Assembly (NCBI GenBank): GCA_937910235.1
Contig: CALENB010000101.1
Coordinates: forward strand, 2,098 to 66,097
Direction: 5' to 3'
From: an uncultured Myxococcales bacterium
GTDB taxonomy: Bacteria > Myxococcota_A > UBA9042
DNA: 64,000 bases
Position 1 is the stretch's first letter. Every line of letters starts with the position of its first letter. The notes below the pieces were generated by a model. It was not told the DNA's origin, did not search any database, and worked only from the letters and a program-made list of their open reading frames with translations. Positions 41,511 through 57,782 of the stretch are shown piece by piece. The position numbers and the translations under genes are program-made.

Positions 41511-42031
41511 CGTGACGCTCCTGAGGCGGGCTTAGCGCCGCGCTGCTTCGGCACCCACGCCCAGACCATCTCACACACGATCGGCTCCCGCCCGCTCTCG
41601 TCTGTGACCGTCACCGCGACGACCGTCTCGCCCTTCTCCAGCGTCCGAATCTGCTCCTGCTGCGCCACCGTCAGCGTCGCCACCGCGCGCATCGCGCCTT
41701 GGCTGCGCCGCACAAAATCGGTGTGAATCGTCTTGACGACTGGCACGCTGGTGTCCGGCGTGTTCATCCCGACCAAGATCCCGGTCGCGGTCTCGGCCAG
41801 CAACACCATCGCGCCTGCGTGCACCTGGCCGATGTGGTTACGCGCCGGGCGTCGATTCGCGAGCGATGTCTCGACGCGGCTGACGGTGCACACCTCAAAT
41901 CGAACGCCGGTGGTGCCGATGTAGGGCACAACCGTGCGAAACAGCGTGGTCAGCGCGCGACTGCGCAATCGGGCCGGCAACGGGTCGAGTCTGCCGACCA
42001 TAGCGGCGAGACGGTTGGCGTGCTGAGGCAT
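41507..42031 (-). CDS. Hotdog-fold thioesterase-like protein (DUF4442/YiiD_C-like)
   Basis: The RNHIGQVHAGAMVLLAETATGILVG core is typical of this family. Start chosen at MPQHANRLA; the ORF is open up to 42280 but that extension contains DNA tandem repeats. Confidence 0.5.
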   Translation of the reverse strand: MPQHANRLAAMVGRLDPLPARLRSRALTTLFRTVVPYIGTTGVRFEVCTVSRVETSLANRRPARNHIGQVHAGAMVLLAETATGILVGMNTPDTSVPVVKTIHTDFVRRSQGAMRAVATLTVAQQEQIRTLEKGETVVAVTVTDESGREPIVCEMVWAWVPKQRGAKPASGASR

Positions 42032-42175
42032 GAAAACGCTCCGATAGCGCGTGGCGACGACGCGGCCAGTTTCCAACAAGACAGCCCCAAACGCGCCCCC
42101 ACATCGCGCCGCGGACGAAACACAGGGCGACGCAGGGTCGTTCGTCGAAGGGTCGTTCGTCGCAGGCTGAGGCAA

Positions 42176-42192
42176 TTGACGCATTGCGTCAA
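42176..42192. promoter_or_regulatory. Perfect 17-bp palindrome TTGACGCATTGCGTCAA in the divergent promoter region
   Basis: Direct reading. It sits between the divergently transcribed thioesterase-like gene and the acyl-CoA ligase gene, next to two 13-bp direct repeats GGGTCGTTCGTCG (42135-42147 and 42150-42162). Confidence 0.5.
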
Positions 42193-42297: not shown

Positions 42298-43962
42298 GTG
42301 AGCGCTCAGAAGCTGTTGCTGGACTATGTGTACGAAAACGAGATCAAGAACGCCGACCGCGTCTACCTGACGCAGCCCCTCGAGGGCGGCCGCGTCGTGG
42401 ATTACACGTGGAAAGAGACGCTCGATCGGGCCCGACGCATGGCGACCTATCTGCAAGCCCAGGGCCTGGAGCGCGGCGATCGTGTCGGCATCATCTCCAA
42501 GAACTGCGCGCACTTCATCATGGCGGAGCTAGCGATCTGGATGGCGGGGTACGTCACGGTCGCGCTGTACCCGACCATCAACGGCGACTCGGTCAAGTAC
42601 ATCCTCGACCACAGCGGCGCGAAGCTGCTGTTCATCGGCAAGCTCGATACGTGGGACGAGATCAAGACGGGGATTGCGGACGACCTGCCCTGCGTCGCGA
42701 TGCCGCTCGCGCCAAAGACGGACTACGTGACGTTCGACAGCGTCGTCGCGAGCACGGAGCCGCTGGCCGGCAAGCCCGCGCGCACGGCGGATGAGCTCGG
42801 TATTCTCATCTACACGTCGGGCTCCACGGGTACGCCGAAGGGCGTGATGCATGGTTTTGGCCAGATGTCGGCGGCGGCCGAGGGCATCGTCAAGGCGTTG
42901 GAGATCAACGCTGAGGATCGCTGCCTGAGCTACCTGCCTCTCGCCCACGTGTTCGAGCGGGCCTACATCGAGACGGCCTCGTTCATCGCGGCGACGCACA
43001 TCTTCTTCGCCGAGTCCCTGACGACGTTTGTGCAAGATCTGAACCGCGCCCGACCGACCGTGTTCATCTCGGTGCCGCGCCTCTGGCTGAAGTTCCAGCT
43101 CGGCGTGTTCAAGAAGCAGCCGCCCAAGAAGCTGGCGATGCTCATGAAGATCCCGATCCTCGGCGGCATCATCAAGAAGAAGGTGCTCACGGGCTTGGGT
43201 CTCGACCAGGTCCGACTCGCCGGCAGTGGCTCCGCGCCGATCCCGGCCGAGCTCATCGCTTGGTACCGCGACTTGGGGCTCAACCTGATCGAGGGTTACG
43301 CCATGAGCGAGGACTTCGCCTACTCGCACTTGTCGCGCGCTGGCTTCGCGGAGCCCGGATACGTGGGTATTCCGTACGACGGTGTCGAAGTGAAGATCAG
43401 CGACGAGGGCGAGATCTTGATCAAGTCCCCTGGCTGCATGCAGGGCTACTTCAACGCGCCCGAGCAGACGGCGGAGAGCTTCACGGAAGACGGCTTCTTC
43501 AAGACCGGCGACCGCGGTGAGCGCAAGCCCAACGGCATGCTCAAGATCACCGGCCGCACCAAGGAGCTGTTCAAGACCTCCAAGGGCAAGTACGTCGCGC
43601 CGGCGCCGATCGAGAACCTGATCAACGTCGACAACAGCATCGAGGCGTCCATGGTCACCGGTTCAGGCCAGCCACAGGCGTGTGCGCTCGTCGTGCTGAA
43701 TGAAGATCTGCGCGCCAAGGCCGGTGACGCCGCCACCCGCGAGCGACTGACGGCAGAGTTCGCCGCGCTGCTGAGCGACGTGAACAGCAAAGTCGAGCAT
43801 CACGAGCACCTGCAGTTTATCGCGGTCATCTCCGACGAGTGGACGATCGAGAGCGGCATGCTGACGCCGACCATGAAGATCCGCCGATCCGCCGTCGAAG
43901 ACGCCTATCACGCGCAGATCGAGGGCTGGTACGAGAGCAAGAGCAAGGTCGTCTGGGCCTGA
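42298..43962 (+). CDS. Long-chain acyl-CoA synthetase (AMP-dependent synthetase/ligase)
   Basis: AMP-binding motif IYTSGSTGTPKGV and the FACS layout. A GTG start is preceded by AGGAGG; the ORF is open from 42184. Confidence 0.8.
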   Translation: MSAQKLLLDYVYENEIKNADRVYLTQPLEGGRVVDYTWKETLDRARRMATYLQAQGLERGDRVGIISKNCAHFIMAELAIWMAGYVTVALYPTINGDSVKYILDHSGAKLLFIGKLDTWDEIKTGIADDLPCVAMPLAPKTDYVTFDSVVASTEPLAGKPARTADELGILIYTSGSTGTPKGVMHGFGQMSAAAEGIVKALEINAEDRCLSYLPLAHVFERAYIETASFIAATHIFFAESLTTFVQDLNRARPTVFISVPRLWLKFQLGVFKKQPPKKLAMLMKIPILGGIIKKKVLTGLGLDQVRLAGSGSAPIPAELIAWYRDLGLNLIEGYAMSEDFAYSHLSRAGFAEPGYVGIPYDGVEVKISDEGEILIKSPGCMQGYFNAPEQTAESFTEDGFFKTGDRGERKPNGMLKITGRTKELFKTSKGKYVAPAPIENLINVDNSIEASMVTGSGQPQACALVVLNEDLRAKAGDAATRERLTAEFAALLSDVNSKVEHHEHLQFIAVISDEWTIESGMLTPTMKIRRSAVEDAYHAQIEGWYESKSKVVWA

Positions 43963-44786
43963 TGCGACCCGTGCGCGCCGGACGCCGCCAAGCGGGCCGG
44001 AGACACGCCCGAACCCGCGTCGCCGGCCTCCTAGGCGCGGCGCTGGTCGGACCGTGGCTGATGGGCGCGATGGCGGCGTCGCCAACCGACCAAGTCGAGC
44101 TGTCGGGTCAGACCGGCCAATACGTCTTCACGCCGGTGTGTAGCTCCCGCGCCATGCAGGTGCGCCACAGCGAAGCGCAGGTCCGCTGGACCCACCGCAC
44201 CCAACCGGACACGGCGTTGGGCGCCACCGTCGTGACGCACCTCGATCTCTATGCCAGCCGCGCCATCAAGCAAGAGCAGGACAACGCCAACGGCCGCGAA
44301 GAGCTGGAGCTCTGGCTGATGCTGCGCGGTCAGGTCGGGCTCGATTGGTCGTGGTTCGGTTTTCGGCTTGGGCTCGGTGGCGGCGGCCTCTGGGACGACG
44401 CTGAGAACGCCGAGCGAGCGAGCGACGACACCTCGACGACGACGGGGACAACGAAGATGGACTGGCAGTGGGTGATCCCCGCGGTGTCCCTGCGCGTCGG
44501 GCCGCAACGCCTCCACGTTCGGCTCGCGATCGCGGATGGGACGTGGCAGCTGCGACCGACCGACCTGACCCTTGGCGTAGGGATCGGCGACGGTGGCGAC
44601 GATCCGGAGGCGCCACGGGATCTCCGAGGGTATCTGGGTGTGGGCGGTGATCTGCGCGACAGCTCGAGCGATCCGTTCTTCTACGCCGGCGCGCGCATGA
44701 ACCTCGTGACGATCAACGTCGGTCTGCAGGGCCGCGTGGGACCAGACGGCTGGTCAGGCGGGCTGTGGCTAGGCCTGCCGCTCTAG
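43963..44786 (+). CDS. Secreted hypothetical protein (possible small beta-barrel)
   Basis: Its start is coupled to the ligase stop (TGATG). It has a signal peptide and G/D-rich alternating segments, with no known motif. Confidence 0.45.
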
Positions 44787-44873
44787 TCGATCTCGCACAC
44801 CGACGGGGTGGTCGAAGACGCCCCAGCAGCCTATCTTGCCGGCAGGTTTTAGCCGCCAGCACACGGAGTCGCC

Positions 44874-45140
44874 ATGCCCCAGGATGCCCTACACGCCAGC
44901 GCCAAAGCCCTCAGCGAGGCGCTAGACGAGAACGACGCGGCGCTCAGCGTGGAGGAGCGCGCGCAGCTCGTCGCGCTGCGAGACGCCCTGACTCAGAAGC
45001 TGGACCGCAAGGATATGGCGCCGGCGCCGGAGCTCACCGGCATCATCGAGCGCGCGATCGCGACGCTCGAGGGATCGCACCCGGACCTCACCGCCGCCCT
45101 CGGAGTCCTGGCGGAGACGCTGAGCGAGCTGGGGATCTGA
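44874..45140 (+). CDS. Small helical protein (88 aa), hypothetical
   Basis: Compact ORF between two co-oriented genes, predicted all-helical. Confidence 0.4.
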   Translation: MPQDALHASAKALSEALDENDAALSVEERAQLVALRDALTQKLDRKDMAPAPELTGIIERAIATLEGSHPDLTAALGVLAETLSELGI

Positions 45141-45145
45141 GCGCC

Positions 45146-46231
45146 ATGACCGCACCCAGCCGATCCACGCACGCCCAGTCCAAATACACGCCGTCCACGC
45201 ACCACCATCGGCCTCTCCTGTGGGCGCTGCTCAGCCTAACGGTCGCCTGCAGCAGCGGCGCAACCGACGCGAACAGCGGCGCTCTTGCCAGGCGAAGCGG
45301 CGACACGGCGCAGGTCTGGGAGGTTGGTGACGGGAGCGGCGACACCACGGCTGGCCTAGTGGATACGGGGCTGACGGACGCGGCTCTGGCCGACTCAGCG
45401 CCCTCCAAGGCGGACGCCGACCCAGATGCGGCCGGGCGCGCGAGTGGCGGCGACGGTTCAGCGGCGACGGCGCTGTGCAGTCACGGCACCGTGATCGTGC
45501 AATGCAGCTACAAGACGGAGGTCCTCAGCATCGGTTTTCCGCTCGATTCGCAGCGCAGCGTGCATTGGCAGCTGCCCCTCGGCGAGGCCCCGACCGGCGG
45601 TTGGCCGTGGGTGCTGATCTTTCAGGGCTCGTTCTTCTCCGCCGACCAAGCCTGGACCGCGACCCCGCTGTCGGCGTTCGGAGCGTTGTATCTGGTCGAG
45701 ACGATCGAGGCGCTACTGGGGGCCGGATACGCCGTGCTGACGCCCGAGGCCGCCGCGAGCGGCACCACATTCTGGAACACCAACGTCATGCCGTGGCGCG
45801 CCGCTTGGTCCAGCTCACCCGACGCCGCCTTGATGAAGGTGCTGTTCGCAGCCGTACAGGCCGGCAAATTCGGGCCGTTGGACCCCAAGCGGCGATTTGC
45901 CGCAGGCGCCTCAAGTGGCGGGTACATGACGAGCCGCATGGCGATCGCCTACCCCGGCACGTTCCGCGCGCTGGCCATCATCGCGGCGGCCTACGCGACT
46001 TGCGCTGGTTCGCTCTGCCTAGTGCCGTCGTTACCGGCCGACCATCCGCCTACGCTGTTCATGCACGGTCAGCTCGACTTGGTGGTGCCACAATGGACCG
46101 CGGAGCTCTACAAGGGCGCTCTGGACAAGCAAGGCACGCCGACGTCCCTGATCAGTGATCCGCTTGGGGGGCACAGCTGGCCGGCGACCGGCGCCAAGGC
46201 GATCCTCGAATTCTTCGGCGAGCATCCGTAG
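45146..46231 (+). CDS. Secreted alpha/beta-hydrolase esterase, LpqC/PHB-depolymerase-like
   Basis: Lipobox (LSLTVACSSG) and a nucleophile elbow GASSGGYM in a secreted esterase layout. The ORF is open from 44765 but the signal peptide starts at 45146. Confidence 0.55.
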   Translation: MTAPSRSTHAQSKYTPSTHHHRPLLWALLSLTVACSSGATDANSGALARRSGDTAQVWEVGDGSGDTTAGLVDTGLTDAALADSAPSKADADPDAAGRASGGDGSAATALCSHGTVIVQCSYKTEVLSIGFPLDSQRSVHWQLPLGEAPTGGWPWVLIFQGSFFSADQAWTATPLSAFGALYLVETIEALLGAGYAVLTPEAAASGTTFWNTNVMPWRAAWSSSPDAALMKVLFAAVQAGKFGPLDPKRRFAAGASSGGYMTSRMAIAYPGTFRALAIIAAAYATCAGSLCLVPSLPADHPPTLFMHGQLDLVVPQWTAELYKGALDKQGTPTSLISDPLGGHSWPATGAKAILEFFGEHP

Positions 46232-46265
46232 CCAAGTCTGCAGACGCGCGAGCGCAGCCGCAATT

Positions 46266-46281
46266 TTGTGCAGCGCAACAA
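46266..46281. promoter_or_regulatory. Predicted PhaR operator copy A: TTGTGCAGCGCAACAA, directly upstream of a TTGACA -35 element
   Basis: Palindromic TTGTGC-N3-GCAACAA. The same motif recurs at 46376, 56621 and 57783. Confidence 0.5.
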
Positions 46282-46375
46282 TTCACAATTGACAGCAGTT
46301 GTTCGGAGAACTACCGTGTCGTCGGCGTTTGAGGACTTGTCTTCTCGCGTCGACAACCACGGTGTCGCGTCCATT

Positions 46376-46390
46376 TTGTGCAGCGCACCA
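46376..46390. promoter_or_regulatory. Predicted PhaR operator copy B: TTGTGCAGCGCACCA, between the putative promoter and the SDR start
   Basis: Half-site TTGTGC-N3-GCAC, 30-50 bp upstream of the SDR start codon. Confidence 0.45.
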
Positions 46391-46438
46391 TAGCCCTCTC
46401 AAGCTGGTTAGCGCCGCTTGGGCGGTCGGAGCAACGAC

Positions 46439-47185
46439 ATGGATTTGAAAGACCTGAAGGTCATCGTCACGGGCGCCGCTAATGGCATGGGCACACATTT
46501 TGCCAATCAGCTCGCGGCCGCAGGTGCCTCCGTCGCGGCGGGGGACATCGACGTTGCCGGACTCGAGCGGCTCGCGCCCGGGATCCACACCCGCCGCCTC
46601 GACGTGACCGACGATGCAGACCTAACGGCCTTTGTTGACTGGGCGGCGGCGCAGATGGGGGGCCTCAATGGCCTCATCAACAACGCGGGCATCATCCGCG
46701 ACGGGTTGTTGGTGCGGAGAGACCGCAAATCTGGCGAGATCACCAAACTGTCGCGGCAGTTTTGGGACGACGTGCTCGCGGTCAACCTCACCGGCGCGAC
46801 CATGATGGTGCGCGAGACGATCGCCAAGATGATCGAGATCGAGCAATTTCCCGGCGTGATCGTCACCCTGTCGTCGATCTCAAGGCACGGCAACGCGGGG
46901 CAGAGCAACTACGTCGCGGCCAAGGCGGCGCTCGCGGCCAACACGCTGACGTGGGCACGGGAGTTCTCGCGATATGGCATCCGCTTTGGCGCGATCGCGC
47001 CAGGGATGGTGGCGACGCCGATGACGGCCGGCATGAATGAGAAGGCGCTCGCGGCGCTGACGGCCCGCATCCCGGTTGGTCGCATCGGGTTGCCTGAGGA
47101 CATCTGGCAAGCGATCCGGTTCGTGCTGGAGTGCGACTATTTCAACGGTCGCACCATCGATGTAGACGGCGGCCTGTCGATGTAG
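46439..47185 (+). CDS. Short-chain dehydrogenase/reductase (FabG/PhaB-like 3-ketoacyl reductase)
   Basis: TGAANGMG Rossmann motif and a YxxxK catalytic segment (NYVAAKAA). Possible acetoacetyl-CoA reductase role given the PHA gene context. An alternative start lies at 46418. Confidence 0.7.
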   Translation: MDLKDLKVIVTGAANGMGTHFANQLAAAGASVAAGDIDVAGLERLAPGIHTRRLDVTDDADLTAFVDWAAAQMGGLNGLINNAGIIRDGLLVRRDRKSGEITKLSRQFWDDVLAVNLTGATMMVRETIAKMIEIEQFPGVIVTLSSISRHGNAGQSNYVAAKAALAANTLTWAREFSRYGIRFGAIAPGMVATPMTAGMNEKALAALTARIPVGRIGLPEDIWQAIRFVLECDYFNGRTIDVDGGLSM

Positions 47186-47201
47186 GGGTCGCCGGGGGTG
47201 A

Positions 47202-48233
47202 TCAGCGGGCGTCGCGCGCAGCCCACCAGCCCGACAGCGCCGGCCACAAGCCCTGAGAAGCTGGCCGCGACACGACCCCGCCGACGTGACTGCCGGGGAG
47301 CTTCCAGACCGCCTTGTCCGTCGACGCCACGACGCCTTCAATGCAGGCGCAATCCTGCCACGGCGCGATGGCGTCCTGCTCAAACACCACGGCGAGGAGG
47401 GGGCAGGCGATCCGACCGAGGTGCACTGGGTTGCCGGTGATGGCCAGCGTGCCCGCCATCAAGGCGTTCTGCCGATAGAGCTCGTCGAGGTACCGCTTGA
47501 AGAAGTGGCCGGGCAGCGAGACGTTGTCGCTCGACCAGGTCTCCAGGGCGAGATACCCGGCCAAGAACCGGTCATTCCAAGCCCTGTCGATCAGGTTGAC
47601 GGCCTTGGCTAGCTTGAGCGTGGGTCGCAGCATCTGAAAGCTCCCCTCGAGCAGTTGCCACGGCATCAGACCAAAAGCGGCGGTGATGGCTCCCACGTCA
47701 AAATCCGGCGAGCGCGTCCATGCGCCCAACAACCCGTCGCCGTGAAATTGCATCGGCGCGGCGAGGTTGCAGACCGAGGCGACATGGGTCGCGTCGAGCG
47801 CGGCCTGGATGACGGTGAAGATGCCACCCATGCAGTACCCCAGCAGGTGGGTTTGGCGCCGGGCGCTGCTGCGGGCGACGATGCGCACGCATCGGGGCAG
47901 ATAGACGCCGCAGAGCTCGTCAAAATCAACAAACCGATCCTCGGCCTGCGGGGTGCCCCAGTCGATGATCCAGACGTCATGGCCCGCCGCAACAAGGAAC
48001 TCGACGAAGCTCTTGCCTGGCATCAAATCCAGGATGTAGTGGCGGTTGATGAGCGAGGGCACCAGCAAAATCGGCGTGGCGAAGGCGAGTCCTTCGGGCC
48101 GCGGGCGGTAACGCAGCAGGCGCAGCTTGTTCTCGCGGTGGATCACGTCCGACGGGGTGCCGCCCACGTGGGGCTTGGGTCGCCGCTTCAAAGTGACTAG
48201 GTTTTTCAGCCGCGCAAAGCCCTTGTCGCCCAC
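47202..48233 (-). CDS. phaC: PHA synthase catalytic subunit, class III/IV-like paralog (PhaC2)
   Basis: Shares ILLVPSLINRHYILDL, AGHDVWIIDWG and the GYCMGG lipase-box (Cys nucleophile) motifs with the PhaC at 58367. Confidence 0.7.
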   Translation of the reverse strand: MGDKGFARLKNLVTLKRRPKPHVGGTPSDVIHRENKLRLLRYRPRPEGLAFATPILLVPSLINRHYILDLMPGKSFVEFLVAAGHDVWIIDWGTPQAEDRFVDFDELCGVYLPRCVRIVARSSARRQTHLLGYCMGGIFTVIQAALDATHVASVCNLAAPMQFHGDGLLGAWTRSPDFDVGAITAAFGLMPWQLLEGSFQMLRPTLKLAKAVNLIDRAWNDRFLAGYLALETWSSDNVSLPGHFFKRYLDELYRQNALMAGTLAITGNPVHLGRIACPLLAVVFEQDAIAPWQDCACIEGVVASTDKAVWKLPGSHVGGVVSRPASQGLWPALSGWWAARDAR

Positions 48234-48256
48234 AACCTGCCTCCGAGTAGCCAGCG

Positions 48257-49951
48257 TTACGCGTACATCGCCGCAAACGTCTCGGCAAACATCTGATGAA
48301 CCTGCCGGCGCCTCACCTTGAGCGTCGCCGTCAGCAGCCCAGACTCGATCGTCAGCGGGCTGTGGATCACCTCAAAGCGCTTAATGGTCTCGTGACGCGC
48401 CAGCCCGGCGTTCACGGCCGCGATGCGCCGCTCGACCTCTTCTCGCAGCAGCGCTCGGACCTGGGCTTCGGACAGGTCGACCGGCTTTGCGCCCCGAAAT
48501 GCGGCCTCTGCGAGCGGATCGAGCCAGACGCCAGCCGTCAGAAAACGCCGACCGTCGCCGAAGAGCACGAGGTGTCCGACCAGATCGTCGTCCGCAAAAC
48601 GCAGCTCCACATTCGCCGGCGGCACGTTCTTGCCGCTCGCGAGCACAAAGATGTCCTTCTTTCGGTCGATGATCTGAAGAAAACCGTCCTCGGTGAACCG
48701 CCCCACGTCGCCCGTGCACAGCCAGCCATCGTCGGTGAACGCTGCGGCCGTCGCCTCCGGGTCCTTGTGGTAACCCGCGAAGATGTTGGGTCCGCGCGCC
48801 AAGATCTCGCCATCGTCGGCGAGGCGGAGCGCCACCGACGGCAGCGGCCGCCCCACCGAATCGAAACGGAACGCGTCTGGCCGGTTGAGCGTCAGCGTCG
48901 GCGACGCCTCGGTGAGACCGTACCCTTCGATGATCAGCAGACCGTTGCGATGAAAGAACTGCTTCACCGCGACGCTCAGCCCTGCGCCACCCGAGAGCAG
49001 AAAGTGGAAGCGACCACCGGTCAGCTCGCCGAGCCGCTGCGCTTGGGCCGCCTCGTCGCCCGCCTTCATCGCAAACGACGCGAGCTTCTCGAAGACCGCC
49101 GGCACGCTCATGAAGACGGTGGGCCGCACTTCGGGCAGGTGCTTGAAGAGGTCAATCGGCTCACACAGCCAGGTCTCGAAGCCCAACGTGTTGCCCAGGC
49201 ACGCCTCGCCAAAGCCGAAGATATGGCTCATCGGCAGCCACAGCAGATCGACATCGGGGGCCTCGCCATCGGGATCAGCGAGCATCGTGGCGTTGCACTG
49301 CAACCAGTCTCGGCCGTTGCTCGCGACGTTGAGGTGGGTCAGGGGCACGCCCTTGGGTAGCCCCGAGGTGCCCGACGTGTAGAGCATCACGGCGCCGTCC
49401 TCGAGGGAGATGGCGTCGAGGAGCCGGCCGATAGCGCCTGTGTCCTCGCCGTGCAGCGCCGCGCCGATCTCAAGCGCTTCGGAGAGGTTGTGCGCCGCCA
49501 GGGCGGGGCCGGTGGCGGCGCCGTCGAAACGCACCACCTGTGGCGGCGTGGGCAGCGGCGCCAGCGCCTCGTGCAGCTTGTCGGCGAGCGGGTCCGTCGC
49601 CACAAACACAAAACTGGCGTCGCTATGACCCACCACGTGCCGCACCTGCTCAGCGGTGCAGCTCGCATACACCGGCACCATCACGCCACCCGCTGCCTGG
49701 ATAGCCAGCGCGGCCGTCATCCATTGCACGCTGTTTGGCGCCAAAATCGCCGCCCGATCACCCCGCTGCAGGCCCGCTGCGCGCAGCCAGAGGGCGAGAT
49801 GCTGAATGTCTGCGGCGAAGGCCCCCCAGGTCACGTCGCGCCAGCCATCGCCGTCGGGGACGTGAAAACGCACCCGTTCGCTGCGGGAGGGCAGCGCGTC
49901 AAAGACGATGCAAGGCGCCGGCTTGGGGGCGAGGTAGGGCGTAGGATCCAT
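48257..49951 (-). CDS. AMP-dependent acyl-CoA synthetase/ligase embedded in the PhaC2 operon
   Basis: LYTSGTSGLPKGV AMP-binding motif. Gaps of 3 nt and 23 nt to its flanking genes imply one transcript. Confidence 0.75.
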   Translation of the reverse strand: MDPTPYLAPKPAPCIVFDALPSRSERVRFHVPDGDGWRDVTWGAFAADIQHLALWLRAAGLQRGDRAAILAPNSVQWMTAALAIQAAGGVMVPVYASCTAEQVRHVVGHSDASFVFVATDPLADKLHEALAPLPTPPQVVRFDGAATGPALAAHNLSEALEIGAALHGEDTGAIGRLLDAISLEDGAVMLYTSGTSGLPKGVPLTHLNVASNGRDWLQCNATMLADPDGEAPDVDLLWLPMSHIFGFGEACLGNTLGFETWLCEPIDLFKHLPEVRPTVFMSVPAVFEKLASFAMKAGDEAAQAQRLGELTGGRFHFLLSGGAGLSVAVKQFFHRNGLLIIEGYGLTEASPTLTLNRPDAFRFDSVGRPLPSVALRLADDGEILARGPNIFAGYHKDPEATAAAFTDDGWLCTGDVGRFTEDGFLQIIDRKKDIFVLASGKNVPPANVELRFADDDLVGHLVLFGDGRRFLTAGVWLDPLAEAAFRGAKPVDLSEAQVRALLREEVERRIAAVNAGLARHETIKRFEVIHSPLTIESGLLTATLKVRRRQVHQMFAETFAAMYA

Positions 49952-49954
49952 CGC

Positions 49955-50422
49955 TCAAAGCTCCTTGCTGCGCTTCTTGGAGGCCGGTTTTGCGGCCGGT
50001 TTTGCCGTCGGTTGGGCGTCAGGCTGTGCGGTCGGCTGTGCGGTCGGCTGTGCCGCCGCTGTGACGGCTCGCACCGTCTGCAGGGCCTCGATCAGCACCG
50101 CGTCGCGCTCGGCTAAGGCGCTGACCAAGGTTCGGATCTCGTCTCGCTGCACCGCGAGCTGCTCCTCCAAGTCCATCATCCGGCTGCCGAGCTGATGCAC
50201 CTCGTGCAGCATCCGCTCCTGGTCCCGCTTCACGGCCACGCCCGCCTGCCCCCACAGGGTCGCCGATTGGTGGTCGGCCTTGGCCTTGGCCTTCGCAGCC
50301 GCGGTGAGCATGGCGCCAGCGGGGCCGAGCAACATGGGGCTCTTCATCACCTGTTCCATCCACGTCGCCGTAGCGTTCTCCCATGCGTCGAAGCCGCCTT
50401 TCCAGGTTTTCCAGGTGTCCAT
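49955..50422 (-). CDS. Small Trp-rich/coiled-coil protein, putative PHA synthase partner subunit (PhaE/PhaR-subunit-like) or phasin
   Basis: 155 aa. The N-terminal W-x2-W-x6-W segment and C-terminal coiled coil resemble the 147-aa protein upstream of phaC at 57924. It is the first gene of the PhaC2 operon. Confidence 0.4.
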   Translation of the reverse strand: MDTWKTWKGGFDAWENATATWMEQVMKSPMLLGPAGAMLTAAAKAKAKADHQSATLWGQAGVAVKRDQERMLHEVHQLGSRMMDLEEQLAVQRDEIRTLVSALAERDAVLIEALQTVRAVTAAAQPTAQPTAQPDAQPTAKPAAKPASKKRSKEL

Positions 50423-50522
50423 GTTCGCTCCTTGTGGCTAGTAGTCGTCGGTGAACGGGTGTCGTCGGTGCTGTCTTGTTGTCGGTGATGGCTTGTCGTC
50501 GCGGTGTAAAACCAAGTGCCTG

Positions 50523-50568
50523 GCGCCGCCCTCAGCCGCCAGCTCGCGCTCACAAGCTGAGGCGGCGC
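50523..50568 (-). terminator. GC-rich hairpin (13-bp stem, 19-nt loop) overlapping the 3' end of the lipoprotein gene
   Basis: GCGCCGCCCTCAGC ... GCTGAGGCGGCGC. It separates the 5-gene operon from the PhaE-like operon. Confidence 0.35.
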
Positions 50569-51473
50569 AGCTCCGAGGCGGTCTCAAAGTCAGCTTTCGT
50601 CTCATTTCTCAGGCTCGTGGCCCGCGCCACCTCCCCGAGGCACTCGAATAGAAACGACACCTGCTGCTCGGTGATCGTCGGCCCGATCGCGGGCGTGATG
50701 GTCAGCTTGGTCCGCACGCGGAGGGTCTGGGTCAATGTCAGGTCCGGTAGCTCGAGCCGGCCGGTGGCGTCGACCGAGACCTCGTACGTGTCCTCGCCGA
50801 TCCACGGCAGACCGTAGAGCTTGCCGTTCGACACCTTGCCCTTCGAGGTCCAGGAGCGCCCTTTCTCGAGCGGAAAGCGCAGCACAGCCACGGGCTGCTG
50901 GTACACGAGCAGCGACTGGCCATCAGCCGGCGACTCCTCGCGGGAGGCCGTGCCCAGCAACCACAAGCCCTGAACATCGCGGCGGTAGACGGCGTCGAAG
51001 CGGCCGCCCGCATCCAGCCCTACGGTGAAGGCGTCCGCGGCGAAGTGCGCTGCGTACCAGCGCCCAGAGACCGGCGTCGCGGTGAAGCTCGCGAGTCGAT
51101 CGGTGCTGCTGCGTTCAGACCAATCCCACACCTGCTGGCCTTTGTCGTTGACGAAGCCCTTGAGGTCGACGGGCACGTGCAGCTCCGCCGGGCTGACCCG
51201 AAACCTCGCCGGGATCCCCATGGCGGCGACGAGCTCGGAGGCGTCGATGTGCCCGTCGAGGTTCGGAATGCAGGCGGGCCCGTTCCCCACCGCGGGCACA
51301 TACGGCAACAGCGGCCCGGCTTGCCCATTCTCGGCGGCACAGGCACAGGCGATGAGGCACCCCAGGGCGACCGCGACGCGGGAGCGCGCCGCCACGCCGC
51401 GATCGAGCCGGATTTGCGGGCTGTTGGCGGGTCGCGACCGCTGCGGGTTTATCATCAGGGGCTCGTGGCGCAT
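50550..51473 (-). CDS. Lipoprotein, paralog of 53991-55043, conserved C-terminal DFETASELRRL tail
   Basis: Lipobox (ALGCLIACAC). Aligns along its length with the other lipoprotein. An alternative longer start at 51521 would overlap the upstream gene. Confidence 0.55.
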   Translation of the reverse strand: MRHEPLMINPQRSRPANSPQIRLDRGVAARSRVAVALGCLIACACAAENGQAGPLLPYVPAVGNGPACIPNLDGHIDASELVAAMGIPARFRVSPAELHVPVDLKGFVNDKGQQVWDWSERSSTDRLASFTATPVSGRWYAAHFAADAFTVGLDAGGRFDAVYRRDVQGLWLLGTASREESPADGQSLLVYQQPVAVLRFPLEKGRSWTSKGKVSNGKLYGLPWIGEDTYEVSVDATGRLELPDLTLTQTLRVRTKLTITPAIGPTITEQQVSFLFECLGEVARATSLRNETKADFETASELRRLSL

Positions 51474-51484
51474 CGATCGTTCCC

Positions 51485-53086
51485 TCAGAAAGTGTACTGC
51501 AGCGTCAGCCGCGCCAACCACGCAGACTTGGCTTGTAGCCCAGCGGCTGGATTATCCAGGCCCGACAGTGGCAGCAGCCACGCGCCCTGGAGTGCGGCGA
51601 TGAAGCCGTCACGGCTCTCGTAACGGATGGTGGGATCGATCTCGACACCCAAGGGTCGTGTGCCGCCCGGCGTCGATTGGGCCTCGACCGCCCAGGCCGC
51701 GACGGCAGCGAGGTCGAGCTGCAACGTGCCCGCGCCGAAGTCTGCGACGCGGTGATGCACGTGCGGCCGCAGGTAGATCGCGTCGGTCACGCGCCCGAGC
51801 AGCTCGCGGAACAGGATGCGATCGACGCGGTAGTCCGAGTGAAAGCGAAAGTTGTCGATCCGCGTGTCCGCCGGCGGGCTCGCCTGGGGACCGTCGAGCT
51901 CGCCCGGCTGCGGGTAGCCTGCGCCCACGGGCTGGGCCGCGCCGAACCCCGGGGCCGGGTCGCCGCTGGCGTAGCCTGCGTCCAGCCCGCCACCGAAACC
52001 CTGCTTCGGGTCGCCGAAGTCGGTCTGGAGCGCCGCGCCGATCTGCAGCGACTCGACGGGATCCCGATAGAGGGCGCCCGGCAGGAGCGTGCCCTGCTCA
52101 ACGGTGCCGGAGAGCACCGCGGCTTCGACCTCGACGCGAAACCGCGCGCCGCGCCATCGCAACCAGAGGTCACCGGCGAGCGCCGAGAAGTTGCGCGGCA
52201 CCACCGAGGCCGAGGTCAGCGCGCCCGACGCGGACTGGCTCGGGTCGACGTTCGGCAGCCAGCTCGCCGGTACATCCAGCTCCTGGGTGCGGCGCGACAG
52301 CCACAACCCAGCGTCGAGGGTGGTGCGGCCAGCCCGAGCTCGACGCGCGAACGTGGTCTCATCGGCGAAACGCAGCACGGCGAACGTGATGGTTCGCACG
52401 TCATCCCGAGGATCGAGGTCGATGGTGCGGCCGGGCGCGGTCCGCGCGACCTGCGGTCCCGTCGCCGAGAAGTCGTAGGCGAGCGCCCAGATGAGCCCGG
52501 CGATGGGGGTCACAAACGCGATGCGGTCGGCGGCGTCTCCCGTGTCGCTCTCCATGCCATCGCCGCCGTGGGTCAAGATCCCCAGCCCCCAATGGCTGCC
52601 CATGCGCCCCGCAGCCAGCACGCCGAACGGGGTGACGGTCTCGGCCCACACGCGACGAAGCCGGATCTGCGCGCTCTCAGGCGCCTGCCCCGTTGCGCCG
52701 AGCGGCGCGCCGTCAGGGCTGGCGCCGAGGCCCGTGCCGTCCATGACGTCCAGCCGCATGTGAATGGCCAGACCGCCGCGCGGCGCGAAGATCGACAAGT
52801 CCGTGCGCAGCCGCATGTCGGCGTGGGTCAGCATCGCGGCTGTGGGGTCGGACAGCGGCACGGGGAAGAACATGCGCCCAGAGGGGGTCGGTCCGCGGTC
52901 CAGATCCAGGTTGTTGAGCGCTTCGCCCCGCAGCCGCAGCGCGCCATGCACCTCGACAGCGGTCGTCGCGCGATCGTGCAGGCCTTGTCCTAGCTGCGTG
53001 AAGGTCTCTGCGGCGGTCGCAGGCGCCACGATGCCGCTCGCCAGCAAGGTTGTAGACGCCCAGAGCGCCAGCGTTGTCGCCCTCAT
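51485..53086 (-). CDS. Outer-membrane beta-barrel protein (FadL/porin-like), hypothetical
   Basis: Signal peptide (TLLASGIVAPATAAE), alternating beta-strand pattern and a C-terminal aromatic residue (LTLQYTF). Start overlaps the hydrolase stop by 4 nt. Confidence 0.5.
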   Translation of the reverse strand: MRATTLALWASTTLLASGIVAPATAAETFTQLGQGLHDRATTAVEVHGALRLRGEALNNLDLDRGPTPSGRMFFPVPLSDPTAAMLTHADMRLRTDLSIFAPRGGLAIHMRLDVMDGTGLGASPDGAPLGATGQAPESAQIRLRRVWAETVTPFGVLAAGRMGSHWGLGILTHGGDGMESDTGDAADRIAFVTPIAGLIWALAYDFSATGPQVARTAPGRTIDLDPRDDVRTITFAVLRFADETTFARRARAGRTTLDAGLWLSRRTQELDVPASWLPNVDPSQSASGALTSASVVPRNFSALAGDLWLRWRGARFRVEVEAAVLSGTVEQGTLLPGALYRDPVESLQIGAALQTDFGDPKQGFGGGLDAGYASGDPAPGFGAAQPVGAGYPQPGELDGPQASPPADTRIDNFRFHSDYRVDRILFRELLGRVTDAIYLRPHVHHRVADFGAGTLQLDLAAVAAWAVEAQSTPGGTRPLGVEIDPTIRYESRDGFIAALQGAWLLPLSGLDNPAAGLQAKSAWLARLTLQYTF

Positions 53087-53994
53087 CTCGCGCCTTCCTG
53101 CAGAAAGGACCGCAAGTCCGCCGTGGAGGCCGCCGCCGCTTCGATCATGGGGAAGTGTCCGCAGCGCGGGTAGAACTTCAGCCGCGCTTGGGGCAGGTCG
53201 GACGCGAGACGCCGGGCAAATCGCGGCATCGAGATGCGGTCATCCCGCCCCCAGAGCAGCAGCACGGGCTTCTGGATGCGGCGATAGGCGGGCTGCATCT
53301 CGGCGAAATGCTGACCCCGCACCGCCGCCAGCGCCGCCGCCCGGGTGCCTGGTCGCTTGAGGGCGAGCTGCAGCTCATCGACAAACGCCTCGGTGAGAAT
53401 GGATGGATCAAAGAAGCCCGTCGCCAGCCGCTCCTCCGCGCGTTCGGTGTAAAAGAGCCGAAAAATCGCCTCGCCGAGGCCACCCACGGCGGCCCAACGG
53501 AAGAACGCTGGGATCTGGTCGTCGTAGACCCAAGCGTCATACAGCGCCACGCGCTCGACCCGATCCGGGGCAGCGATCGCCAACGCCAGCGCCACCGAGG
53601 ACCCCCAGGAGTGGGCGACGACGGCGAAGCGCTTCACGCCCCTGGCATCGAGCAGCTTGAGCACCAAGCGCGCCTGCGCCTGGGGGCTGTAATCACCCGC
53701 TGGCCGGTCGCTCCAACCAAACCCCTTGAGATCCAATGACAGCACGCGGTGGGTGCCGCGCAAGGCCTCGTCGACCCCAACCCAGGTCTCGAGCGCCGAG
53801 GCGAAGCCGTGAAGCAGCACCACCGCCGGTCCCTGCCCGCGGTCGGTGTACCGCACACGCACGCCGTCGATGCGCTGCCAAGCCGCGTTCTTCGGCTCGC
53901 CGCGCATGGCGCCCTGATGAAAGGACAAGCAACCGCTCGCCGACAGCGTCAGCAGGCCCAGCAGCGCGACTATGGGGTACGCGTGACGCTTCAC
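53083..53994 (-). CDS. Secreted alpha/beta-fold hydrolase lipoprotein
   Basis: A GTG start gives a lipoprotein signal (VKRHAYPIVALLGLLTLSASGC). HGF oxyanion motif (VVLLHGFAS) and nucleophile elbow AHSWGS. The GTGA overlap with the upstream gene stop suggests translational coupling. Confidence 0.65.
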   Translation of the reverse strand: MKRHAYPIVALLGLLTLSASGCLSFHQGAMRGEPKNAAWQRIDGVRVRYTDRGQGPAVVLLHGFASALETWVGVDEALRGTHRVLSLDLKGFGWSDRPAGDYSPQAQARLVLKLLDARGVKRFAVVAHSWGSSVALALAIAAPDRVERVALYDAWVYDDQIPAFFRWAAVGGLGEAIFRLFYTERAEERLATGFFDPSILTEAFVDELQLALKRPGTRAAALAAVRGQHFAEMQPAYRRIQKPVLLLWGRDDRISMPRFARRLASDLPQARLKFYPRCGHFPMIEAAAASTADLRSFLQEGAR

Positions 53995-55043
53995 GGCGTG
54001 AGCCTGCGCAGCTCGGAGGCGGTCTCGAACTCGTCGCTCGTCTCGCCGTCTTTGGACCGCGCGGCGGCGACCGTGCCGAAACACTCGGTGGCGAAGAGGA
54101 ACGAACGCACGGTGGTGGTCAGCAGGCCAATCTGGCGGGTCAGCAGGGTCCGCACACGCAGCGCCGGGAAGTCGCCGAAGGGGGTCTTCACGGTGCCCGA
54201 GGCGTCCACCTCGCTGCCGTAGCTCTCGCTGTAGATCACGATCACGCCCTTGGCGAGGCCACTCACCGACGCCTTAACCTGCCATTTGGCCCCGATCTTC
54301 AGGGGAAAAGCCAGCAGCGGCACGGGTGGGTCGTACACCAAGCGCGTCGCGAACAAGCTGTTGTCCTTCGACACCACGCCGCGCAGGAGCAGGGCCTTAC
54401 CGTTGGCCTCGAACACCCCGAGCAGATCGCCTGAGGGAGCCATCGGCGCGGCATAACTGGCGCCGGGATAGTAGCTAGAAAACCAGAGGTCTTTGACAGG
54501 CAGGGTCTTGACCAGCACGTCTTGGTCGCCAGTCATCTTGCCCGAGAAGTCCCACACCCGCTGGCCCCCGGCGACGATCTCGCCCTTCAAGTCGACGGCG
54601 GTGTTCTCGGCCACCCGGAAGGTCGCGGCCAGGTTGGGGCCATAGGGCGCCTCGGAGGCTGTGATGGTGCCGTCGTGGTTCGGTTTGCACGCGCCAGCCT
54701 GGCCGCCAGTGTCACTCACACCGACATCGGCGGTTGGGAGGCTCGTGTCAGCAGCCGAGCCGGAGCCGTCGGACCCGGAGGCGACGGCGCCATCCTGCCC
54801 CGACGCGGCCCCGTCGCCGGTCTCCCAGCGGGTCGGGAAGCTGCCGTCCGCGGCGTCCGCGACCGACGCCGGCGCGCACGTGCCGTTGGATTGGCAGATG
54901 CTCGACGCACAGTCAGCGTTGACGTTACAGGACGCGATCGCCGTCTCGGCGCCGCAGGCCACGCCGACGACCACGCTCAGCGCGCACGCCGCGGTCACGC
55001 GAAGCCGCCGGAGGGCGGTCGCGCGCGGTGCGCTCATCTTCAT
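53991..55043 (-). CDS. Lipoprotein, paralog of 50550-51473, C-terminal DEFETASELRRL tail
   Basis: Signal MKMSAPRATALRRLRVTAACALSVVVGVACG with a Cys-rich N-terminal segment, then a domain that aligns with the other paralog. Confidence 0.55.
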   Translation of the reverse strand: MKMSAPRATALRRLRVTAACALSVVVGVACGAETAIASCNVNADCASSICQSNGTCAPASVADAADGSFPTRWETGDGAASGQDGAVASGSDGSGSAADTSLPTADVGVSDTGGQAGACKPNHDGTITASEAPYGPNLAATFRVAENTAVDLKGEIVAGGQRVWDFSGKMTGDQDVLVKTLPVKDLWFSSYYPGASYAAPMAPSGDLLGVFEANGKALLLRGVVSKDNSLFATRLVYDPPVPLLAFPLKIGAKWQVKASVSGLAKGVIVIYSESYGSEVDASGTVKTPFGDFPALRVRTLLTRQIGLLTTTVRSFLFATECFGTVAAARSKDGETSDEFETASELRRLTP

Positions 55044-55138
55044 CTTGTTCCAGGCCAACCTCATGTCGCCTCCCTCTCTGCCTGAGTGCGGCTCGCGAGC
55101 CGTGACGCGCCGCTCTTGCCTGGGCGCGGTGCCGATCG

Positions 55139-56437
55139 CTAGCTTGCGGAGGCAGCGTCGCTCGTCACCGGGCCGGTCACGGCGGCGCTGGCTGGATCCA
55201 TCGCTGCGGCCCCGACACGCGCGCGGCTGCCGGTCTCCATCAGCCCCATCGCCGGCACGACGATGAGCAGGTGCGCAAACGCCAACAGCCCGAGCGCCGC
55301 GCTGAAGCCGCCCGCGCCTGCGACCGCGCCCGTGGCCACTGGCAGCAGGAAGCCGCCGAGCTGGCCGACAAGCAGCAGCAGACCGAGCGCCGCGCCGGCT
55401 CGACTGACGCCAACGCCGGGGAGCTCGAGCGGCAAGGTGAGGACCAAGGGCGCAAAACAACCGCCGCCGATCGCGGCTACCGCCAACCACAGCCCCGGAG
55501 ATCCGGGCACGATCGCCATGATACCGAGGGCCGCCGCCGCGAGCATCGCGCCGCCAATGATGAAGGGACGCCGCAGGCCGACCTTGTCCGAGAGCCACGC
55601 GCCGCCCAGGTTCGCGACCCCCGCCACGCCAAGCCACGACGCCACCGCGACGCCTACTTCGGACGCGCTCATGCCCGCGTCGGTGAGCAAGCGCGGCAGC
55701 GAGCCGAGCAGCGCGAGGTAGCCACCAAAGAGCAGCAGCTGAATGCCCGCGACCCGCATCAGTTGGGCGTTCTTGGCCAACTTCAACACATCGGCGAGCC
55801 CTGCATGTCGCGAGAGCGCCGCCCGGTCGCGCACGAGCCACAGCCACAGCAGCCCGGTCAGCACCATCGCCACACCGGCGGCCACCATCGCCATCCGCCA
55901 GCCTCCCAGCATCGGCGCGAGCCAGGTCCGCGCCACCAACACCGTGATGGCGGTGCCAAAGGTGTAGCAGATGAGCGCGATGCCGTTGGCGCGACCCAAG
56001 TTCTGCAGCGGGACGTGGGAAGCCAAGATCTTCGGGATGGCGGGGGCCACAAATCCGACGTGCAAACCAAATCCCAACATGGCGATCGCCATCGTCCACG
56101 GCCCGGTAGCGAGGGCGCGGGAGGCGCAGGCCAACGCCCCTACCATGATCGCGAGCCCGGCGACCCAGCGCGCACCCCAGCGGTCCACGGCCGCGCCGCC
56201 CATGGGCGCCGCCACGGCGATCCCAAACGGCGCCGCGCCCCAAACCACCCCACCCATCGCATGCGAGATCGACAGATCGGCGGCGATGTCGGGCATCAGT
56301 GGCGGCAACAGCGACCACCCCAAACCACCGCCAACACCCTGCATGGCGCCAGCGAGCGCAGTGACCAGCACCGGCCGCGCAGGAGCGCCCTGGAGCACGT
56401 CCTGTATCCCGCTCTCGATCTTCGCTTGCACCGTCAT
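55139..56437 (-). CDS. MFS transporter
   Basis: 12-TM layout with Gly-rich helices. Start chosen at MTVQAKIES; the ORF is open to 56536. It is the first gene of the 5-gene operon and is divergent from phaR. Confidence 0.65.
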   Translation of the reverse strand: MTVQAKIESGIQDVLQGAPARPVLVTALAGAMQGVGGGLGWSLLPPLMPDIAADLSISHAMGGVVWGAAPFGIAVAAPMGGAAVDRWGARWVAGLAIMVGALACASRALATGPWTMAIAMLGFGLHVGFVAPAIPKILASHVPLQNLGRANGIALICYTFGTAITVLVARTWLAPMLGGWRMAMVAAGVAMVLTGLLWLWLVRDRAALSRHAGLADVLKLAKNAQLMRVAGIQLLLFGGYLALLGSLPRLLTDAGMSASEVGVAVASWLGVAGVANLGGAWLSDKVGLRRPFIIGGAMLAAAALGIMAIVPGSPGLWLAVAAIGGGCFAPLVLTLPLELPGVGVSRAGAALGLLLLVGQLGGFLLPVATGAVAGAGGFSAALGLLAFAHLLIVVPAMGLMETGSRARVGAAAMDPASAAVTGPVTSDAASAS

Positions 56438-56620
56438 CGTCGCTCTCCTCGCTGGCCTCGCCGCGCCCTGAACTGCCTCGCCGCGCCCCGAGCGGCCGCG
56501 AGAGGCTACGGTCACCCGGCTGTGTGGGCGCGCCACCGCGTCGCGGATGCGCCACAGCGGCCGGGCGAGTGGGAAGCGAGCAAAAGCTAGGGGCTCGCGG
56601 GGCTCGCGTCAAGCGCTATT

Positions 56621-56635
56621 TTGTGCGCTGCACAA
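56621..56635. promoter_or_regulatory. Predicted PhaR operator copy C: perfect palindrome TTGTGCGCTGCACAA upstream of phaR, divergent from the MFS operon
   Basis: Perfect inverted repeat. A second palindrome GTGCTGCATTCAGCAC lies at 56646-56661. Confidence 0.5.
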
Positions 56636-57764: not shown

Positions 57765-57782
57765 AATTCGTGCCGGCCAAAT

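Follow-up and report, generated by a model that had tools for sequence, protein, structure and literature searches.

A putative PhaR-regulated polyhydroxyalkanoate locus with an exported depolymerase-type lipoprotein at its junction with a conserved chromosomal unit in an uncultured Myxococcales bacterium

Described systems and how the locus compares

[quoted passage not shown] A gene that appears to encode a new, exported member of this known family lies in a 64,000-nucleotide stretch (hereafter the window) of contig CALENB010000101.1 from an uncultured Myxococcales bacterium. It is one of five co-oriented genes, which encode an acyl-CoA/AMP ligase (ligase 1), an exported protein of 274 amino acids (aa), a small DUF4404 protein, the putative depolymerase, and a FabG-like short-chain dehydrogenase/reductase (SDR). 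The original prediction, made from the DNA letters of the window, had read the first four as a single module for PHA metabolism that leads into the SDR. This was partly supported, as all five genes are real but do not form one module: a unit of the chromosomal backbone (unit A, 42,298–44,786) adjoins what is predicted to be the edge (unit B, 44,874–47,185) of a PHA locus of ~14.5 kb (44.87–59.45 kb). The identities of the genes, the boundary near 44.8 kb, and the PhaR regulon are assigned with high confidence from sequence comparisons, and the reading as a whole, a junction of unit A and a PhaR-regulated PHA locus with an exported depolymerase, is with moderate confidence the best explanation.

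The depolymerase resembles the enzymes of superfamily e-dPHAmcl in the PHA Depolymerase Engineering Database, to which the family NF050057 corresponds, in its hidden Markov model match, its Ser-Asp-His triad, and its export signal. The mcl-PHA depolymerases have a single catalytic domain and no C-terminal substrate-binding domain (PMC2666664), and the same applies to the enzyme of the window, which ends with its catalytic domain. It differs from the e-dPHAmcl enzymes in being a lipoprotein with a linker of ~80 aa rather than a freely secreted protein, its lipase box is GASSG where most homologs have GISSG, and its identity to the other aligned family members is ~40–58%. A further counterpart is PhaZBd (Bd3709) of the predator Bdellovibrio bacteriovorus, an extracellular-like mcl-PHA depolymerase that acts on prey PHA outside the predator’s own cytoplasm and releases mainly dimers and trimers (PMC4834554). 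Its products, oligomers and monomers, benefit the predator, and in the conditions that were tested Bdellovibrio itself formed no PHA (PMC4834554). The likeness, which is one of description, lies in a predatory-type host and in an enzyme that would likewise act on the mcl-PHA of other cells; a difference is that the gene of the window abuts a full PhaR/PhaC locus, and some relatives carry it in the PhaC operon.

The regulatory counterpart is the PhaR (AniA/PhaF) regulon of Alpha- and Betaproteobacteria, with which the window shares the PHB_acc_N domain, the consensus, and boxes at the phaR and phasin promoters, the box at the phaR promoter implying autoregulation. The sequence TGCRNYGCASMA is the PhaR consensus of Bradyrhizobium diazoefficiens, obtained from DNase I footprinting (PMC6201568), and the PhaR/AniA palindrome of Sinorhizobium (S. 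meliloti) is YGC-RNY-GCR, which the boxes of the window fit (PMC12542648). Promoters of phaP1 and phaP2 in S. meliloti each have two boxes that flank the -35 element (PMC12542648), and the SDR promoter of the window has the same number. The predicted regulon of the window differs from the proteobacterial one in its phylum, in a palindrome extended to TTTTGTGC-N3-GCACAAAA, and in including an envelope-protein operon, an acyl-CoA ligase, and two PhaC paralogs.

The ligase-fed mcl-PHA route of pseudomonads consists of a 3-hydroxyacyl-CoA ligase and PhaC. The window recalls both this route and the class III/IV synthases in that its PhaC homologs are short (~340–360 aa) and keep the catalytic Cys, and an acyl-CoA ligase stands directly upstream; the differences are two co-conserved PhaC paralogs instead of a PhaE/PhaR subunit, and scores below the class III cutoff. 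The esterases of the LpqC type (COG3509, esterase_phb), to which the original prediction had assigned the depolymerase, share with it a fold of the alpha/beta hydrolase type as well as a GxSxG motif, and the mycobacterial namesake LpqC is also a lipoprotein. However, this assignment failed against the family models: with TIGR01840 the enzyme reached 31.7 bits where the cutoff is 107.85, and PF10503 was not matched at E ≤ 0.01.

The depolymerase and the junction of two units

The depolymerase scores 291 bits with NF050057 (e_dPHAmcl; curated equivalog cutoff, 270 bits), and its residues 117–361 align to profile positions 13–252 of 252. The N-terminus carries a lipoprotein signal (...LLWALLSLTVA-C35, read from the sequence), followed by the low-complexity linker and the catalytic domain (residues 117–361) with the motif G254-A-S256-S-G-G, so that both the signal and the GASSGG motif were correctly recognized from the start. 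The triad residues S256 (within GASSG), D311, and H343 and four cysteines are invariant in an alignment of 25 homologs; the four cysteines fit an oxidizing, extracytoplasmic location. A cysteine also closes the hydrophobic N-terminal stretch in most of the aligned homologs. A search of solved structures returned a weak match to LC-Est1C only. Homology to PHA depolymerases and an export signal, as first proposed, were borne out, and the enzyme appears to be of the exported mcl-PHA depolymerase type. A part in a cycle of synthesis and mobilization of the cell’s own polymer did not hold, since an exported lipoprotein lies on the wrong side of the membrane and cannot reach or mobilize cytoplasmic granules.

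A scan for homologs with one genome per species gave 244 relatives, and 79 loci, nearly all labeled Myxococcota or Deltaproteobacteria, were kept for neighborhood analysis. One of them, from Chondromyces apiculatus, already carries the name of an extracellular mcl-PHA depolymerase at the National Center for Biotechnology Information (NCBI). Culturable genera with a homolog in these scans include Nannocystis, Polyangium, and Chondromyces. In four species-representative genomes (L009, L033, L035, and L058) a homolog is located directly downstream of a PhaC gene on the same strand, and in a fifth (L077) it is convergent with PhaC, as in the window; these five genomes are labeled Polyangiaceae, Sandaracinus, Sandaracinaceae, or Myxococcota. 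The depolymerase would appear to be a recurrent but facultative accessory of the PHA cluster. A Burkholderia mcl-PHA paper was set aside as its subject is a lipase outside the depolymerase family.

The boundary of the locus emerges from comparison with another Myxococcales assembly (L006), in which synteny with the window extends between secD and ligase 1 and resumes at mfd, the shared backbone having 52–88% aa identity (77–88% for most genes). The order in L006 is asd, a gene for an HMA-thioredoxin protein, DUF4442 (77% identical and in the same position), ligase 1 (86%), a homolog of the 274-aa protein (54%), and then mfd (88%). Between the last two, positions 44,787–59,366 of the window hold the PHA block of ~14.5 kb, whereas the equivalent spot of L006 (10,781–11,885) holds a single gene on the opposite strand for a 338-aa alpha/beta hydrolase, at most distantly related. 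DUF4404, the depolymerase, the SDR, and the PhaCs all lack a homolog in the L006 locus, and the second acyl-CoA ligase of the window (ligase 2) matches there only the ligase 1 ortholog, at 29%. Because ligase 1 and the 274-aa gene are kept in L006 without the PHA block, a junction of two units is placed at ~44.8 kb. No integrase, transposase, or mobile-element domain was found in the open reading frames (ORFs) scanned within this variable spot.

Unit A appears to consist of a housekeeping-type fatty-acyl-CoA/AMP ligase and a small barrel, with nothing to link it to PHA. The best NCBIfam matches of ligase 1, to FadD11 and further models for CoA ligases of long-chain fatty acids, all stay below the respective cutoffs, and its identity to the ligase of the PHA clusters is only 27–30%. 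It starts with GTG, 6 nucleotides (nt) after AGGAGG, and its L006 ortholog has ATG at the same aligned position. The 274-aa protein has no family match in Pfam or NCBIfam and belongs to a tiny family, for which a word search of 5.8 billion proteins gave 3 matches and a full HMMER search of 1.84 billion representatives gave 11; other members of the family adjoin genes for polyprenyl synthase, DAHP synthase, and UbiE, or for RF3 and LepA. A FadL-type channel was considered for this protein, and neither a 14-strand barrel with a hatch nor FadL as the top fold match was found; an uptake pair of the FadD/outer-membrane-channel kind, formed by ligase 1 and the barrel, had no synteny support beyond the immediate clade. 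The DUF4442 gene, divergent from ligase 1, is part of the same conserved backbone, outside the PHA block. The intergenic region between the two contains a perfect 8-1-8 palindrome (TTGACGCATTGCGTCAA; 42,176–42,192) and a 15-nt tandem repeat (CGACGCAGGGTCGTT / CGTCGAAGGGTCGTT; 42,128–42,157), a stretch that is not conserved in the aligned region of L006 and may be a lineage-specific operator.

The 88-aa DUF4404 gene, which we count within the PHA locus, has no homolog within 10 kb of a depolymerase homolog in any of the 79 loci, even at E < 1, and is missing beside the 68%-identical depolymerase homolog and from all 80 loci of the PHA cluster found in metagenomes (see below). The idea that it serves the depolymerase as a conserved partner or as a chaperone was rejected on the same grounds of co-occurrence. 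Likewise, neither a homolog of the 274-aa protein nor an ortholog of ligase 1 stands beside a depolymerase homolog in the 79 loci, where the weak matches (27–30%) are ligase 2 orthologs, and neither is present in the 80 cluster loci. Taken together, the synteny with L006, the unrelated neighbors of the 274-aa family, and the absence of DUF4404 leave ligase 1, the barrel, and DUF4404 without a comparative link to PHA.

These comparisons also bear on the model of the original prediction, in which ligase 1, the secreted protein, the helical protein, and an LpqC-type esterase form one operon leading into the SDR, mobilize the cell’s own polymer, and re-activate the products through ligase 1. The five genes are indeed co-oriented with short gaps (a 1-nt overlap, then 87, 5, and 207 nt), promoter and terminator scans gave nothing above chance and no convincing terminator between the five, and PHA synthase homologs and PhaR boxes are located nearby. 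The start-stop coupling of ligase 1 and the secreted protein was confirmed as a TGATG at 43,960–43,964, but it is lost in L006, where a gap of 185 nt separates the pair. Moreover, this pair persists in L006 in the absence of the whole DUF4404-to-PhaC2 stretch, relatives of the 274-aa gene have quinone-biosynthesis or translation-factor genes as neighbors, no depolymerase homolog is accompanied by DUF4404, and the esterase fails the LpqC-type model, passes the extracellular mcl-PHA one, and as a lipoprotein is separated by the membrane from the cell’s own granules. A single operon of this kind is very improbable. The presence of PHA synthase homologs, a reductase, and a CoA ligase in the neighborhood was confirmed by family scans; synteny ties ligase 2, not ligase 1, to the PHA genes.

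The window is ordinary chromosome and not an island, as had been suggested for these genes. Its G+C content is ~67%, and genes were called by G+C at third codon positions (GC3) together with Pfam and NCBIfam scans, which identified urocanase, fumarase, dnaG, rpoD, recJ, secDF-yajC, prepilin peptidase, asd, and mfd. The low GC3 of the 274-aa gene and the esterase (0.72–0.74), which could have indicated a compositional island, arose from stop-to-stop ORFs; with the true starts the values are 0.825 and 0.826, like those of the neighbors. Exact-sequence look-ups placed the locus also on metagenomic contigs of up to 166 kb, on which public gene calls give the five genes the same lengths (554, 274, 88, 361, and 248 aa), in agreement with the coordinates first given for them, and the DUF4442 gene its 174 aa. 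Elsewhere in the window, and unrelated to the PHA locus, positions 23,422–27,027 of the minus strand encode a protein of 1,201 aa in which four lamin-tail domains are combined with thrombospondin type 3 repeats and DUF4215, as is typical of myxobacterial surface proteins. The features of units A and B and of the remainder of the PHA locus are listed in Table 1.

Table 1. Features of the junction and of the predicted PHA locus, in window coordinates.
Feature	Position	Strand	Details
DUF4442 hotdog-fold protein, 174 aa	41507–42031	-	Pfam DUF4442, E = 5e-26; divergent from ligase 1
Acyl-CoA/AMP ligase 1, 554 aa	42298–43962	+	Pfam AMP-binding, E = 5e-67, and AMP-binding_C_3
274-aa exported protein, predicted 12-stranded outer-membrane beta-barrel	43962–44786	+	ATG shares one base with ligase 1 stop
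DUF4404 protein, 88 aa, helical	44874–45140	+	PF14357, 43.8 bits (cutoff 27); 5 nt upstream of depolymerase
Lipoprotein of extracellular mcl-PHA depolymerase family, 361 aa	45146–46231	+	NF050057
PhaR box 1 (TTTTGTGCAGCGCAACAAT)	46264–46282		Exact TGCRNYGCASMA match on minus strand, 46266–46277
PhaR box 2 (TTTTGTGCAGCGCACCATA)	46374–46392		Consensus matches on both strands, 46376–46387 and 46379–46390; 47 nt before SDR start
FabG-like SDR, 248 aa	46439–47185	+	adh_short_C2, E = 7e-47; downstream of two PhaR boxes
PhaC paralog 1, 343 aa, class III-like	47202–48233	-	PhaC_N; last gene of minus-strand operon
Acyl-CoA ligase 2, 564 aa	48257–49951	-	AMP-binding, E = 1e-69
155-aa conserved cytoplasmic protein, Ala/Lys/Pro-rich tail	49955–50422	-	PT repeat match, 26.8 bits
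307-aa lipoprotein	50550–51473	-	Lipobox LIAC; paralog of 357-aa lipoprotein
TIGR04551-family outer-membrane protein, 533 aa, predicted ~18-strand porin-type barrel	51485–53086	-	
Lipoprotein alpha/beta hydrolase, 303 aa	53083–53994	-	Abhydrolase_1, E = 1e-30; lipobox SASGC; kept in cluster loci
357-aa lipoprotein	53991–55064	-	Lipobox GVAC; first operon gene in most relatives
Major facilitator superfamily (MFS) transporter, 432 aa	55139–56437	-	MFS_1, E = 6e-39; heads minus-strand operon in this lineage
PhaR box 3, perfect palindrome TTGTGCAGCGCACAA	56619–56637		phaR/MFS divergent intergenic region; matches on both strands at 56621/56624, together spanning 56621–56635
phaR, PHA-granule-binding repressor, 274 aa	56940–57764	+	PF07879 (PHB_acc_N), 87.7 bits (cutoff 25)
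PhaR box 4	57781–57799		Between phaR stop and phasin-like gene; exact match 57783–57794
Phasin-like protein, 147 aa	57924–58367	+	Weak tblastn match to L009 phasin-position protein, E = 1e-4
PhaC paralog 2, 359 aa	58367–59446	+	TIGR01836, 222.3 bits (cutoff 365); GYCMGG

PhaR boxes and the conserved cluster

Two identical copies of TTTTGTGCAGCGCA are located between the esterase stop and the SDR start (46,264–46,277 and 46,374–46,387). Each forms the left arm of the extended palindrome, the core of which fits TGCRNYGCASMA. The window contains nine exact matches to this consensus, which was itself derived from B. diazoefficiens, against 1.54 ± 1.23 expected, and none of 100 shuffled sequences reached nine. 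Three of the matches lie inside coding regions (436, 40,598, and 41,704) and probably arose by chance; the last of them (TGCGCCGCACAA; 41,704–41,715), ~330 nt from the start of the DUF4442 gene, is the sole site near ligase 1. A TTGACA hexamer at 46,289–46,294, 6 nt downstream of box 1, is by our own reading a candidate -35 element that the promoter scan did not call, and the box between the divergent phaR and MFS genes is followed by TTGACG on the operon strand. Equivalents of the latter box are present in L009, L035, L058, the close relative L088, and 16 of 23 metagenome loci; most of these metagenome loci have no further consensus match, and almost none was found in them outside the promoter positions. 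The position of the fourth box relative to phaR and the phasin gene is also the same in L009 and L088. The repressor gene was located through L009, where phaR lies between the SDR/phasin genes and the operon, by a tblastn search of the window; the two proteins are 54% identical, and that of the window has a long low-complexity C-terminus. With exact consensus matches, a phaR gene in the window, and boxes kept in orthologous loci, the identification of the boxes upstream of the SDR as PhaR boxes, which the original prediction had made, is well supported.

The closest model to the SDR is the FabG-like PRK08217 (265.7 bits; cutoff, 298), and its closest solved relatives are 3-oxoacyl reductases. 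PhaB acetoacetyl-CoA reductase was rejected as its identity, with scores far under the cutoffs of TIGR01829 (137 versus 302 bits) and NF042966 (133.5 versus 436 bits). Orthologs with 63–65% identity are found within the phaR-phasin(-PhaC2) operon of L009, L035, and L058, and matches of at least 200 bits within that of several metagenome loci; overall, the SDR stands beside PhaC2 or a phasin gene in at least seven metagenome loci in addition to these three genomes. The SDR would seem to be a regular member of the PHA cluster that was relocated in the window and yet is still preceded by PhaR boxes.

Convergent with the SDR is an eight-gene minus-strand operon, which encodes the MFS transporter, a lipoprotein, a lipoprotein hydrolase, a porin-like barrel, a second lipoprotein, a phasin-like protein (155 aa), ligase 2, and PhaC. 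The genomes L009, L033, L035, L058, and L077 have the same order from the 357-aa lipoprotein through the hydrolase, the TIGR04551 protein, the 307-aa lipoprotein, the 155-aa protein, and ligase 2 to PhaC, and where the upstream flank is present phaR-phasin(-PhaC2)(-SDR) runs divergently from this operon. The 80 cluster loci came from a scan of metagenomes with an alignment of PhaC, and the core cluster is kept in the ~30 of them that are long enough to show it as well as in the genomes L088–L091. The conserved unit is accordingly taken to be phaR-phasin-PhaC2(-SDR) divergent from an operon for envelope proteins, ligase 2, and PhaC. Literature searches on DUF4404, TIGR04551, and myxobacterial PHA synthases gave nothing usable, and no description of this PhaR-controlled cluster was found in them.

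The two PhaC paralogs of the window are 40% identical to each other. Paralog 1 scores 245.8 bits with TIGR01836 (cutoff, 365), aligns to solved PhaCs with E = 4e-30, and has the Cys of GYCMGG, the Asp, and the His in place. The stop codon of the phasin-like gene overlaps the start of paralog 2 in a second TGATG (58,365–58,369); the phasin-like protein has no Pfam match above cutoff. Neither PhaE nor a Bacillus-type PhaR subunit was detected, and the co-conservation of the two paralogs suggests a heteromeric synthase without PhaE. In those cluster loci that extend far enough to reveal its position, an ortholog of ligase 2 (53–56% identity) directly precedes PhaC. Between ligase 2 and the 307-aa lipoprotein, the cluster loci keep the 155-aa protein, which has a Trp-rich N-terminus and a tail reminiscent of those with which granule proteins of the PhaF/PhaM type bind the nucleoid; the protein may resemble a phasin or PhaM.

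The envelope module of the operon includes the 307-aa and 357-aa lipoproteins, which flank the hydrolase and barrel throughout the cluster, share a C-terminal FETASELRRL motif, and cross-match in reciprocal tblastn searches; Pfam and NCBIfam scans gave no family match for either. The top fold matches of the TIGR04551 barrel include the polymer exporter AlgE, and the fold of the barrel is also Occ-like. A FadL-type channel was considered here as well, and neither 14 strands with a hatch nor FadL as the top match was found. The MFS gene heads the operon in the closest relatives (L088 and L090) but not in more distant clusters. In L090, the MFS and 357-aa lipoprotein genes are called as one 725-aa gene (6,931–9,108), either through a genuine fusion or as an artifact of a frameshift or of the assembly.

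Four exported proteins and a porin-like barrel in one operon with PhaC and a ligase raise the possibility that the cluster acts on a different, envelope-crossing hydroxy-fatty-acid polyester or lipid, instead of making cytoplasmic storage PHA, and that the depolymerase-like lipoprotein remodels this material. The fold match to AlgE, the scores of both PhaCs under the class III cutoff, and the lack of literature found on myxobacterial PHA synthases would all agree with such a role. On the other hand, PhaR, its boxes, and the phasin-position genes are hallmarks of granule-coupled regulation, the Cys-Asp-His triad is intact in the PhaCs, which can be aligned to solved PHA synthases, and neither an exporter ATPase nor polymer-secretion machinery was seen in the cluster, which makes this explanation very improbable.

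A possible link to extracellular polyester

The PHA locus with an exported depolymerase remains our preferred reading, and several observations weigh against it. Both PhaCs, PhaR (87.5 bits with TIGR01848; cutoff, 109.45), and the SDR fall short of the curated cutoffs set for the NCBIfam models closest to them, and the depolymerase exceeds that of NF050057 by only 21 bits. In 74 of the 79 genomic loci the depolymerase homolog stands alone, no homolog occurs within 10 kb in any of the 80 cluster loci from metagenomes (of which 40 extend at least 1.5 kb downstream of PhaC), and the two closest relatives of the cluster, L088 and L090, are without it. No PhaR box precedes DUF4404 and the depolymerase in the window, so that co-regulation of the depolymerase is there unsupported. 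In addition, the literature yielded no assayed enzyme of the myxobacterial branch, and the porin- or Occ-like fold of the barrel is not specific for 3-hydroxyalkanoates, the exporter AlgE scoring similarly.

Much of this would also be expected if the esterase were a general secreted polyester or lipid esterase that rearrangement placed beside the PHA locus, with no functional tie to it. The stand-alone homologs, the metagenomic clusters without one, and the narrow NF050057 score fit such an enzyme, as do the missing box in the window and the absence of boxes before the stand-alone homologs, as judged by a strict half-site pattern; the gene order of the window is, moreover, unlike that of every relative. 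Nevertheless, a homolog adjoins the same operon in five species-representative genomes, in four of the five on the same strand directly after PhaC, which is hard to obtain by chance in five of 79 loci, and the curated equivalog NF050057 names mcl-PHA as the substrate. A general esterase is therefore regarded as somewhat unlikely.

Under the preferred reading of a PhaR-regulated PHA locus, and by analogy with characterized PhaR proteins, PhaR would repress the promoters of the SDR, of phaR and the operon, and of the phasin gene by binding their TGC-N3-GCA boxes, until nascent PHA sequesters PhaR and the boxes are released. From the chemistry of their families, the SDR may interconvert 3-ketoacyl-CoA and (R)-3-hydroxyacyl-CoA, ligase 2 may activate free (3-hydroxy)alkanoates or fatty acids with CoA, and the two PhaC paralogs may polymerize the resulting hydroxyacyl-CoAs. 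The depolymerase would act outside the cytoplasm on foreign mcl-PHA, for instance from lysed prey, and yield 3-hydroxyalkanoate oligomers and monomers, which could enter through the Occ-like porin-type barrel and the MFS transporter and then be passed to ligase 2. Such scavenging, which would link the depolymerase to the operon and for which the prey-PHA depolymerase of Bdellovibrio serves as an analogy, is possible though less likely than not. A broader form of it would give many Myxococcota an undescribed PhaR-gated “outside-in” route, in which lipoprotein hydrolases at the surface or in the periplasm degrade foreign polyester or lipid and feed import of hydroxy-acids through the Occ-like TIGR04551 barrel, activation by the ligase, and re-polymerization in the predator’s own granules by a synthase of two PhaC paralogs in place of PhaC/PhaE or PhaC/PhaR; the mcl-PHA depolymerase would be included only in some lineages, that of the window among them, and the MFS importer would be an addition here. 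Such a general route is, at present, unlikely.

The individual enzymes of the locus all belong to known families, except that the 274-aa barrel represents a tiny uncharacterized one. Reclassification of the depolymerase from an LpqC-like polyhydroxybutyrate type to an exported mcl-PHA type gives it a different substrate and a different compartment to test. PhaR-box regulation, which has been characterized mainly in Alpha- and Betaproteobacteria, is recognizable in Myxococcota by the same consensus, and it accompanies a myxobacterial PHA cluster that is widely conserved and, it appears, not previously described, with two PhaC paralogs, an acyl-CoA ligase, and a four-protein envelope module. If the cluster does couple extracellular polyester or lipid breakdown to PHA storage, it would represent a new carbon-scavenging route in predatory soil and marine bacteria, and it would supply the recycling of bioplastics with lipid-anchored mcl-PHA depolymerases and with unusual synthases.

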